NCBI GenBank assembly: GCA_051004775.1
Contig: JBPCJZ010000181.1
Coordinates: 2,391 to 66,390 of the forward strand
Source of the DNA: Gemmatimonadota bacterium
Lineage (GTDB): Bacteria > Gemmatimonadota > Gemmatimonadetes > Palauibacterales > Palauibacteraceae
Length of the DNA: 64,000 nt
Direction: 5' to 3'
Of the stretch, positions 26,499-29,400 are shown in pieces; position 1 is the stretch's first letter; the number at the start of each line of letters is the position of its first letter. The position numbers and the translations under genes are program-made. The notes under the pieces were generated by a model, which saw only the letters and a list, made by a program, of their open reading frames with translations, had not been told where the DNA came from and did no database searches.

Positions 26499-29400
26499 TC
26501 AGGCCGGCACGGGAGACGGCTCACCGCCGCCCGTGCCCTCGAGCGGCGATTCGCCCCGCGGCTTCCGGACGGGTCCCGGCACGGGAGTGACGGGCTTCGG
26601 CGGATCGCTCGGCGGCGGCTCGAACGGCGGCAGCGGTTGGCCCGCGGCCATCAGCTTGATCTCATCGGCGTCGAGCGTCTCGCGCTCGAGCAGCGCCTCC
26701 GCGATCTCTTCCATGAGGATGCGGTGCTCCTTGAGGACCTCCTCGGCGGTCGCGTACGCGTCGTCGAGGAACCGCTTGATCTCGCGGTCGACGGTCTGGG
26801 CCGTGCTGTCGCTGACTTCGCGGCGGTGTCCCAGTTCCCTGCCGAGGAAGACTTCCTGCTCCGCCTCGCCGACGGCGATCGGGCCGAGCGCATCGGACAT
26901 GCCGAACTGCGTGACCATGCGGCGCGCGATGTTCGTCGCGCGCTCGATGTCGTTGCCCGCGCCGGTCGTGATCTTGCCACGGCCGAACACCATCTCCTCG
27001 GCCACCCTGCCGCCGAACAGCATCGTGAGCTGGCCTTCGAGCCAGTCCTTGGTGTAGTTGTGGCGATCCTCCTCGGGCAGCGACGCCGTGATCCCGAGGG
27101 CGCGGCCGCGCGGCACGATCGTCACCTTGTGCAGCGGGTCGAGGCCGGGGACGCGCAGGGCGATCACCGCGTGGCCCGCCTCGTGGAAGGCCGTGACGCG
27201 GCGCTCCTCGTCGCTGATCACCATGCTCTTGCGCTCCGCGCCCAGCATGACCTTGTCCTTCGCCTCCTCGAAATCGCTCATGTAGACGCGATCCTTGTCC
27301 TTCCGCGCCGCGAGCAGCGCCGCCTCGTTCACGACGTTGGCGAGGTCGGCCCCGGATAGCCCGGGCGTTCCCTTGGCCAGAATCCTCAGGTCGACGTCCT
27401 CCGACAGCGGGATCTCCTTCGTGTGCACCTTGAGGATGCCTTCACGGCCGTTGATGTCCGGGCTGCCGACGACGATCTGCCGATCGAAGCGCCCGGGGCG
27501 CAGGAGAGCGGGATCGAGCACGTCGGGCCGGTTGGTGGCTGCCAGCAGGATCACGCCCTCGTTCGACTCGAAGCCGTCCATCTCGACCAGGAGCTGGTTC
27601 AGCGTCTGCTCGCGCTCGTCGTGCCCGCCGCCGAGACCCGCGCCCCGGTGCCGACCGACCGCGTCGATCTCGTCGATGAAGATGATGCAGGGCGCGTGCG
27701 TCTTCCCCTGCTCGAACAAATCACGAACGCGGCTGTTGTGCAGCAGCACCGGCTTCTCGCCGCCGAAGAACGCCTCGTTTCCGCAACCGCACAGGTCGTA
27801 GACGAACCCTTCGTACGCCACACGCTCCACTCGTCGCACCACCGGCCGCTTGCCGGACTGCGGGTGTCGCGGGCGCTCGTCCTCGGAGAGGAACGGGTTG
27901 GCGCTATTGCCGACGATGAGCGTCCAGCTCTCGGTCTCCGGGAGCGGTCTCGACTTGATTACCCGGCCCGCGGCATGGGTCTGCCGGCGGATGCCGGTCG
28001 GGATGCCGTGCATCCCGCACAGCCACGCCAGCTCGCTGATCAGGCGCCGGCTCACAGATGTCGCGCGCAGCTTGCCCGCCGCCGAGGTCCAGCCGTCGCC
28101 GTCGGTGTAGCCCTTCAGATACGCGAGGAACAACTCGCGCGGCGCGTCCCACAGCAGAGCCGGTATGTGCTTGGCGTGACTTCCGTTGCCGCAGTGCCGC
28201 GTAAAGAAACGTCCGAGCGGAGCGGAATGGACGACCAGCCGTGTCGAGTTGTCGGCCGTCTCCACGCGCTTGGGTGACAGACCGAACAGCTTGTCGATCA
28301 GGCGAGTGGCGTCGGCGATCAGCTCGGTCTCGTGCGTTCCGAAGCACAGCTCGAGGTCGCCGTTCTCACGCCCCTCGGCGGTGTACAGCCCCATCAACCG
28401 AAGCAGATCCTCGGAGACGGGCACCCCGTCCGGTACGTCCGTCGTCCCGTAGCGATCCGACAGGCCGCGCGGCAGGTGCTTGCCCGACTGCCAGTTCCCG
28501 ACCGTGGCCTGCGACACCCCCAGCATCTCGCCGAGCTCGGCCTGTGAATGGCGGTCGCTGGAACCGATGGCGAATGCGTAGGCCGCGATGAGGTTCTGGT
28601 CCGGCTCGTTGATGTCCAGCGCCTGCGGAACGCTGCTACCGAAGGAATGGGCGCGGACGTGATGCGGCGTTCCCTCCGTGGCGTCGTACGCGCCACGGAC
28701 CTGGAACGGCAGGTTGACCAGCACGTCGCCCGGCACAATCTCCCGTGCCTGCTTCGCGCGAATCCCGCCGTGACCCCGAACGAACACGCTGTGGTCGCCG
28801 GTGGTGCGGATCTTCCCGCCGAGGTACTCGATCTCGTAGATTTCCTCGACCCGGTGACGGTACACGCCCTTCACCGCCTGCCAGCCACTGCCGCCGAACG
28901 TTTCGAGGTCACCCCGGAAGCCCGATTCGCCGCTCTCGTAGCCGAGCGCCTCGAGTCCAAAGGACGGGATCACGCGATCCGCTTCGCCGTCGGCGTAATA
29001 CGGATCGACCGCCTCACTGATCGGGACGAGCCGGGTACCGGTTTCGTCGCGGACCAGGACCGGCGTGTCGCCGGTCACGGACGCACCGACACCTACGAAC
29101 ATCTCGACGAAGTCCGAGCCGCTCATCGAGAAGAACGGGCGCTCGGCCTCGCCGGCCACGGCGCGCGCGAGCAGCGTCTTCCCGGTTCCCGGCGGTCCGA
29201 TCAGCAGGGCACCCTTCGGTAGCCGGCCGCCGAGGCGCCGGAACTTGGCCGGATCCTTCAGGAAATCGATGATCTCGACGAGGTCTTCCTTCGCCTCGTC
29301 CGCGCCCGCCACGTCGGCGAACGTGACCTTCGGGGTGTCACCGCTCAGGAGCTTCGCCTTCGACTTGCCGAAGCTGAACGCCCGGGAGCCGCCGGCCTGC

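Follow-up and report, generated by a model that had tools for sequence, protein, structure and literature searches.

Endonuclease-bearing inteins have been studied structurally in only a handful of cases, all of them archaeal or from yeast, and the accessory DNA-binding domains that they carry are diverse and poorly understood. Such domains have been described in all five solved structures; those of TliVMA and PI-TkoII resemble helix-turn-helix (HTH) proteins, and the TliVMA domain has been compared with the 434 repressor and experimentally swapped for it (Beyer & Iwai, 2022; PMC8966425). In TliVMA and PhoVMA (PDB 7qss, 7qsu and 7qst) the HINT splicing domain is split by a double-motif LAGLIDADG endonuclease together with an accessory domain that lies after the endonuclease and before the C-terminal HINT lobe, and the connection on the N-terminal side of the endonuclease is an unstructured loop of 28–32 residues (PMC8966425). 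PI-TkoII (also called PI-PkoII; PDB 2cw7), intein 2 of the Thermococcus kodakarensis DNA polymerase, likewise has extra domains, its HTH-like accessory domain and a ‘domain IV’ (PMC8966425). In PI-SceI, the intein of yeast VMA1, a non-endonuclease module known as the DNA recognition region (DRR) makes further contacts with DNA and so lengthens the recognition site. Here we describe an intein in the ftsH gene of a Gemmatimonadota bacterium, found in a stretch of 64,000 nucleotides of contig JBPCJZ010000181.1 (assembly GCA_051004775.1), which we refer to as the window. Like the VMA inteins it has a HINT domain split by a double-motif LAGLIDADG endonuclease and an accessory module, but its HTH precedes the endonuclease, at the position where TliVMA and PhoVMA have the unstructured loop. 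Inteins that combine an endonuclease with an accessory DNA-binding domain are already known; what is new here is the place of the HTH in the chain and its type of sequence, a widespread family of FtsH inteins of which we found no description in the literature, and the occupation of two sites within one gene. Judged from its sequence and predicted structure, the element is probably a full-size, functional mobile intein in which the HTH serves as an accessory DNA-binding module.

The intein and both ftsH exteins are held in one long open reading frame on the minus strand of the window (26499–30143; Table 1). The product is identified as FtsH by its Pfam domains (FtsH_ext, AAA, AAA_lid_3 and Peptidase_M41), and is most similar, once spliced, to proteins of other Gemmatimonadota. 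The AAA domain is broken after FVGVGA by 449 residues that end in VLLHN and are followed by SRVRDLF, which places the insertion point, GVGA/SRVRD, between the Walker A and Walker B motifs. Removal of the intein yields an FtsH of 663 residues with the contiguous motif FVGVGASRVRDLF, the core of which, GVGASRVRDLF, is identical in all 119 intein-less close FtsH homologues. The intein-less homing site reconstructed from the window reads TTCGTAGGTGTCGGTGCG/AGCCGCGTTCGTGATTTG, and is also written TTCGTCGAGATGTTCGTAGGTGTCGGTGCG/AGCCGCGTTCGTGATTTGTTCGAGCAGGGG.

All of the splicing residues, S1, T94, H97, D429, H448, N449 and the serine at +1, are present in the window copy. The six that lie within the intein are invariant in 77 of 77 aligned inteins from more than 10 phyla, the set on which the conservation counts given here are based. 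The Pfam Intein_splicing profile, whose cut-off is 35.8 bits, gives 37.8 bits for the intein by itself and 34.6 bits, just short of the cut-off, for the whole FtsH precursor; the NCBIfam model TIGR01445 (intein_Nterm) scores 24.1 bits, just under its cut-off of 24.5. An AlphaFold2 model of the full intein, built on 48 sequences, has a mean predicted local distance difference test (pLDDT) score of 93 and a predicted template-modelling score of 0.90. Foldseek searches with this model gave TliVMA as the best match (E 2.5e-23), with PI-TkoII (E 3.4e-21), PhoVMA (E 1.9e-18), PI-PfuI (E 3.2e-15) and PI-SceI (E 1.7e-11) behind it, followed by mini-inteins and free LAGLIDADG enzymes such as I-DmoI. 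The template-modelling (TM) scores to TliVMA and PhoVMA, the best structural matches, are about 0.62–0.75, and the host protein is a P-loop nucleoside triphosphatase in these cases too. We conclude that the insert is a class-1 intein with intact splicing motifs, which would be expected to splice.

An earlier reading made from the letters of the DNA, hereafter the sequence-only reading, had drawn attention to three strings within 28080–28560, one HTH-like and two belonging to a LAGLIDADG core. All three fall inside that interval and within the intein, at residues 179–204 (28470–28547), 226–238 (28368–28406) and 317–331 (28089–28133). The LAGLIDADG core with its two motifs is borne out by Pfam (LAGLIDADG_3, E 1.5e-8, 35.2 bits against a cut-off of 22.5), by alignment to PI-TkoII, the closest solved protein by sequence (E 2.3e-9), whose blocks C, D and E align with those of the FtsH intein, and by Foldseek, where the matches include I-DmoI and I-Tsp061I besides intein endonucleases. 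The two LAGLIDADG helices, L-M-G-L-Y-T-A-E236-G and L-K-G-Y-T-D-G-D329-G, are 93 residues apart, and the secondary-structure order of the AlphaFold2 model predicts a fold of two alpha-beta-beta-alpha-beta-beta-alpha halves. In the alignment to PI-PkoII, E236 and D329 are set on its LAGLIDADG acidic positions (LMGLYTAEG; FLEGYFIGDG in the alignment) and K304, in AKHIP, stands opposite the lysine of NKRIP. The block D lysine has a catalytic role in PI-SceI, where it is K301. E236 and K304 are present in 77 of 77 relatives and D329 in 76 of 77, so the acidic residues are intact, as the earlier reading had supposed, and not substituted. Of 150 highly conserved positions the window copy differs from the consensus at nine, eight of them conservatively, the ninth being L313, which is replaced by alanine. 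The endonuclease domain is genuine and its catalytic residues E236, K304 and D329 are intact, from which DNA cleavage would be predicted. Among the weaker Foldseek matches to this domain is WhiA (DUF199; PDB 8dy7 and 3hyi), which, like the FtsH intein, combines a LAGLIDADG fold and an HTH in one chain; WhiA differs in that its LAGLIDADG domain is catalytically dead, its HTH is C-terminal and sigma-region-4-like, and it contains no intein, being a domesticated transcription factor and not a mobile element.

The module that precedes the endonuclease is modelled as three helices (residues 162–173 and 180–187, and a recognition helix at 191–199) followed by a G-x-x-x-P-R motif, with a mean pLDDT per 10-residue block of 89–96 across residues 161–200; residues 150–222 modelled alone give the same three helices with a pLDDT of 84. 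The match of the window copy to Pfam HTH_3 is limited to profile positions 11–36 of 55, which cover helix 2, the turn, helix 3 and the following G-x-x-x-P. Twenty-one of 29 homologous segments match HTH_3 at an E value of 0.1 or better (best E 2.2e-6), and one family member, P0062, scores 35.2 bits, above the cut-off. A profile of the HTH segment, when compared with PDB sequences, matched the P22 c2 repressor (E 3.8e-4) as well as the XRE-type ‘LexA’ protein 2kpj, HipB, Cro proteins and the 434 repressor. The same profile retrieved 3522 proteins at an E value of 0.001 or better from 1.84 billion representative proteins. The top of this list is made up of proteins with 4–11 matched stretches, of which the three that were scanned contain genuine tandem HTH_3 domains (P0061, 7 x HTH_3, E 5e-98), and of single full-length matches, all of which are FtsH-type inteins. 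TliVMA and PhoVMA, which are archaeal, reside in a different host gene and are 18–19% identical overall, are absent from the profile matches, and no part of PI-TkoII, an archaeal intein of 537 residues in a polymerase, matches the profile. A word-indexed protein search with the profile returned one match, an XRE protein of 66 residues, and is uninformative on other intein families.

The consensus of the recognition-helix region in the family is G-V-S-Q-x-T-V-x-N-W-Q-x-G-x-H-x-P-R. T193, W197 and P204 are 100% conserved, Q180, G188 and Q191 95–97% and G200 84%, while the polar, surface-type residues of helix 3 range from 73% to 100% (N196 73%, Q198 84%, Q191 97%, T193 100%). In the profile alignment Q180 and Q191 fall at the glutamines found at the N-termini of helix 2 and helix 3 of Cro/C1 repressors. 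The FtsH-intein module has the helix 2-turn-helix 3 arrangement and the G-x-x-x-P signature in common with Cro/C1 proteins such as P22 c2, the 434 repressor and HipB; these are free-standing, dimeric, five-helix proteins, whereas the module described here has three helices and is embedded in an intein. A confident model with three helices and a sequence related to Cro/C1 argue for an HTH fold, as opposed to a recognition region of another kind. We therefore regard the module as a genuine Cro/C1-related three-helix HTH, a shortened version and not a textbook HTH_3, which would be predicted to bind DNA.

The segments on either side of the HTH are the most variable of the whole intein. The connector formed by residues 126–158 (entropy 2.14) contains predicted strands at 126–129, 140–143 and 154–156, and the linker at residues 206–222 has an entropy of 2.31. 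Ratios of nonsynonymous to synonymous substitution (dN/dS), calculated by the Nei-Gojobori method between the window and the two closest copies (L001 and L082) and approximate because dS is near saturation, are 0.34–0.55 for the connector at 126–158. A further module, residues 363–412, follows the endonuclease. It has the consensus GRxIKxKPLP...WxLxIGKTSNPF, with predicted strands at 363–369 and 383–390; in a 12-sequence alignment (A2) no change is seen at G372, R373, I375 or L380, and P379 is kept in at least 90% of the sequences. The dN/dS of the module is 0.14–0.15. The accessory domain of the archaeal VMA inteins sits at the chain position of this module (PMC8966425). When set against the accessory-domain description of Beyer and Iwai, the HTH and the 363–412 module are both extra folded modules, and only the latter is at the canonical position; the beta-hairpin of residues 363–412 may thus be a second accessory element.

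A protein search for the intein returned 59 relatives, nearly all of them FtsH fragments with an intein at the same site, and when one genome per GTDB species was scanned, 365 genomes proved to encode a relative. The 80 best-matching loci are all in ftsH, and the genomes that carry them include ones assigned to Gemmatimonadota, Eisenbacteria, Acidobacteriota, Actinomycetota, Chloroflexota, Armatimonadota, Planctomycetota, Verrucomicrobia, Clostridia, Proteobacteria and many groups of the candidate phyla radiation (CPR/Patescibacteria); the Actinomycetota carriers include the cultured Glycomyces arizonensis DSM 44726. Given this spread, and the HTH-like accessory domains of TliVMA and PI-TkoII (PMC8966425), the arrangement is not rare, contrary to the proposal in the sequence-only reading; what sets it apart from the described cases is the position of the HTH in the chain. 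The HTH is missing from more distant relatives, which lie in archaeal RFC, an epimerase and a fungal FtsH-like protein, the last of these being degenerate. The fungal example (P0043, from Coemansia spiralis) is a 33%-identical relative in an FtsH-like AAA protein, inserted at the same site (YVGVGA/S...HN/SKVRS), and has a degenerate second LAGLIDADG motif (GCALGST). Public annotations of the bacterial genes read ‘AAA family ATPase, partial’ or ‘LAGLIDADG family homing endonuclease’, and the intein accounts for many ftsH genes in metagenome bins being split or labelled as a partial ATPase or a homing endonuclease. A literature search found no description of an FtsH intein; FtsH goes unmentioned in the main text of a large survey of prokaryotic inteins, and the co-occurrence of ‘intein’ and ‘FtsH’ in PMC6892783 and PMC2997540 was set aside, other genes being concerned there.

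The same HTH-bearing family also occupies a second site in ftsH, (L/M)(A/G)A/TNRPD, in the sensor-1 region of the AAA domain. This site is empty in the window (LLAA/TNRPD, in the 27300–27330 region of the C-extein), is filled in P0012, P0019, P0021, P0027, P0032, P0088, P0107, P0110, P0113 and P0142, and is filled together with the first site in P0062 and L080 (4001–5365 and 5561–6865). Inteins at the second site keep Q191, T193 and W197 and tend to differ at positions 189 (V to F), 192 (A/M to R/T) and 196 (N to K) in the eight sequences compared. In the profile alignment, positions 192 and 196 correspond to base-contacting positions of the 434 repressor. These differences between the recognition helices of the two sites are a lead and not a result, as the sequences number eight and lineage is a confounder. 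Elsewhere in ftsH, P0110 (residues ~208–639) and P0141 (~208–641) have an unrelated LAGLIDADG intein in the Walker A P-loop (GxGK/C...HN/T). Some FtsH genes thus hold two inteins, and all three sites are filled in none of the sequences examined; unusually long exteins in L012, L020, L031, L037 and L067 suggest further multi-intein ftsH genes.

In the reading that we favour, the two HINT lobes would excise the insert after translation and ligate the exteins, by way of Ser1, T94/H97, D429, H448-N449 and Ser+1, so that FVGVGASRVRD is restored. The free intein or its precursor would be a double-motif LAGLIDADG homing endonuclease that relies on E236, D329 and K304. Its target would be the conserved VGVGA/SRVRD-encoding stretch of ftsH alleles that lack an intein, and the element would spread when the cut is repaired from the copy that has one. 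The HTH most likely extends or anchors recognition of the homing site through contacts beside the endonuclease core, in the way that the DRR does in PI-SceI, which serves as a functional model although its DRR is an insertion within HINT and not an HTH (PMC8966425) and its identity to the FtsH intein is 12–13%. A role as accessory DNA binder is suggested by the conservation of polar helix 3 residues across phyla, by the loss of the HTH along with the endonuclease in a mini-intein, and by homology to DNA-binding domains. Conservation of helix 3 across phyla also fits a universal target, for example the conserved ftsH sequence, better than it fits host-specific operators.

Several observations weigh against this interpretation. 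In the solved VMA inteins the segment at the chain position of the HTH is far from the DNA-binding face (PMC8966425). Family members at the other ftsH site have the same core residues in the recognition helix, so these residues may have a structural role and not one in reading bases. The HTH_3 globule has five helices, of which helices 4 and 5 are absent here, since past P204 the chain runs on as an extended linker to the endonuclease. With 17.8 bits within the intein and 21.4 bits as a 73-residue segment, the window copy stays under the HTH_3 cut-off of 23. The ‘textbook HTH_3/XRE’ of the sequence-only reading is accordingly to be narrowed to an HTH with a Cro/C1 signature, and of the Pfam families that it had expected, LAGLIDADG_3 and Intein_splicing score above threshold and HTH_3 below. 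Foldseek with the isolated 73-residue model gave a best E value of 0.14 and a TM score of about 0.4, the domain being too small for significance; the top entries, none of them significant, are all HTH proteins (the XRE-type 2kpj, HigA2, P22 c2, HipB and also homeodomains and Mos1). Finally, the composition of the intein is close to that of its host (GC 0.673 against 0.676 for the exteins; GC at third codon positions, GC3, 0.86 against 0.91), and a recent acquisition was rejected for want of a foreign signature in either value. Host-like composition, together with the sharing of the intein at 76–77% identity with two related genomes (L001 and L082), indicates that it is not a recent arrival, and the endonuclease could accordingly have become inactive recently without visible damage.

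This last point opens the alternative that survives best, which we nevertheless consider unlikely: the intein would splice while its endonuclease is inactive in this lineage, the element being fixed, vertically inherited and late in its homing cycle, with the HTH as a still-conserved relic. Decay is evident in related copies. P0219 (L082, 3001–6345), the closest full-length copy, with an intein 77% identical to that of the window, has already replaced its block C glutamate (E236G, LMGLYTAGGR), so its endonuclease is probably inactivated. Elsewhere in the family, L052 combines E236A with loss of residues 363–405, L060, L075 and P0015 have cleanly lost these residues alone, L053 has a deletion of the recognition helix and the following linker, and P0045 is a mini-intein of 212 residues without HTH and without endonuclease. 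The window copy, however, retains E236, K304 and D329 and departs from the family consensus almost exclusively through the conservative changes given above. Its dN/dS within the same clade is 0.16–0.20 for the endonuclease and 0.09–0.11 for the HTH, values that neutral decay would not give, compared with 0.10 for HINT and 0.15–0.19 for the exteins. Opportunity for homing also continues, in that empty targets abound in the clade: 119 of the 120 closest FtsH proteins (73–86% identical) are intein-less and keep GVGASRVRD, the sole carrier being P0219, and in two of the intein-less relatives, L081 and L083, the DNA at the site hardly differs from the homing site as reconstructed. Taken together, selection on the endonuclease and HTH in the window, empty targets in the clade and decaying copies in related lineages fit a homing cycle in which the element is still homing-competent, or was so until recently. 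The suggestion of the sequence-only reading that the intein is still mobile thus has indirect backing from its patchy distribution, the empty targets, purifying selection and the degenerate copies elsewhere, with the proviso that mobility may have lasted only until recently.

Identities of inteins and exteins correlate across the family (r = 0.68), and the inteins of Actinomycetota are as close to the window intein as those of other Gemmatimonadota; this pattern is suggestive of horizontal transfer, and not decisive against co-divergence. The dS of the intein is about 1.0 and that of the exteins about 0.6, both against L001 and against L082, which may reflect exchange of the intein within the clade or a weaker constraint on codon usage. 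The codons that flank the insertion are rich in A/T-ending forms (GTA GGT GTC GGT GCG / AGC CGC GTT CGT GAT TTG) in a gene with a GC3 of 0.91. A co-conversion tract was considered and rejected as an intein-specific sign of recent homing, the same codons being found in the intein-less L081 and L083. GAT encodes the aspartate at +5 in 54 of the 76 loci, out of 77, that have aspartate there. The patch is possibly a trace of past invasion and loss, or the product of another constraint.

The strong purifying selection on the HTH, its relationship to repressor-type domains and its chain position, which in the solved VMA inteins lies far from where DNA is bound (PMC8966425), would also suit a host-directed Cro/XRE-type regulator in a partly domesticated intein, which might, for instance, repress ftsH or stress genes or make splicing conditional on DNA; DNA-stimulated conditional splicing has been reported for another intein (PMC5238726). 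We regard such a regulator as very unlikely. The recognition helix is nearly identical over more than 10 phyla with unrelated regulons, the HTH is always coupled to an intact endonuclease and is lost with it in mini-inteins such as P0045, and its three helices come without the dimerisation element typical of XRE repressors. That the segment is a structural spacer with a chance resemblance to an HTH and without a DNA-binding function, as its score under the Pfam threshold and the non-significant Foldseek result for the isolated module might suggest, has next to no plausibility, in view of a family profile that matches genuine Cro/C1 domains and a member that scores above threshold, surface-exposed polar residues of helix 3 (Q191, T193, N196 and Q198) whose 73–100% conservation a spacer would not need, and flanking connectors that evolve much faster than the three helices.

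A bolder version of the mobile-intein reading, which we consider unlikely, is that the HTH is an acquired repressor-type module that relaxes or extends recognition, with positions 189, 192 and 196 as specificity determinants, and so enables the element to occupy two ftsH sites, related AAA+ genes and many phyla. If true, nature would have arrived at an equivalent of the engineered 434-repressor graft, and the proposal of Beyer and Iwai that accessory domains drive the spread of inteins would have a direct test case. The family is in any case useful, since it is widespread, resides in an essential and universally conserved gene, has an HTH that is recognisable by sequence and stands at a place in the chain without precedent in the solved structures, uses two target sites and can be seen at all stages of decay. 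The influence of accessory domains on the recognition of homing sites and on the switching of targets could be studied in this natural system, and its HTH and LAGLIDADG modules are a possible modular scaffold for meganuclease engineering.

Table 1. Features of the intein-bearing ftsH gene, with positions in the window; residues are numbered from the first residue of the intein.
Feature	Position	Strand	Evidence or remark
ftsH N-extein: FtsH_ext, transmembrane segments, Walker A GPPGTGKT	29082–29837	minus	Pfam
Complete class-1 intein, 449 residues	27735–29081	minus	Pfam, PI-PkoII alignment, AlphaFold2, Foldseek
N-terminal splicing lobe HINT-N, residues 1–125	28707–29081	minus	AlphaFold2 beta-strands, pLDDT >90
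Ser1	29079–29081	minus	N-terminal nucleophile
Block B T94 / H97 (T94-G-D-H97)	28800–28802 / 28791–28793	minus	T-x-x-H motif
Variable beta-strand connector leading into the HTH, residues 126–158	28608–28706	minus	AlphaFold2 strands, entropy
Three-helix Cro/C1 (XRE)-like HTH module, residues 159–205	28467–28607	minus	AlphaFold2, profile matches, conservation
Linker from HTH to first LAGLIDADG helix, residues 206–222	28416–28466	minus	pLDDT 78–83, high entropy
Double-motif LAGLIDADG homing endonuclease domain, residues 223–362	27996–28415	minus	Pfam, PI-PkoII alignment, AlphaFold2, Foldseek
Block C, residues 226–238	28368–28406	minus	predicted catalytic E236 at 28374–28376
Block D lysine K304	28170–28172	minus	in AKHIP
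Block E, residues 317–331	28089–28133	minus	predicted catalytic D329 at 28095–28097
Post-endonuclease beta-hairpin module, residues 363–412	27846–27995	minus	AlphaFold2 strands, conservation, clean deletions in relatives
C-terminal splicing lobe HINT-C, residues 413–449	27735–27845	minus	invariant D429, H448, N449
Block F D429 in VYDL	27795–27797	minus	
Block G H448-N449	27735–27740	minus	
Ser+1 of C-extein	27732–27734	minus	
ftsH C-extein: rest of AAA, lid, Peptidase_M41 with HEAGH, stop codon	26499–27734	minus	Pfam
A/T-ending codon patch, codons -5 to +6	27717–27734 and 29082–29096	minus	

The gene order tilS-hpt-ftsH-folP-cdaA is common to the window and L082. The true start of ftsH is likely the ATG at 29837, 19 nucleotides past the hpt stop codon, a spacing that is the same in L082. 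The mechanically defined reading frame runs a further 102 codons upstream of this start (29838–30143) and overlaps the end of hpt (29857–30447), and automatic gene callers might split or over-extend ftsH because of this upstream extension.

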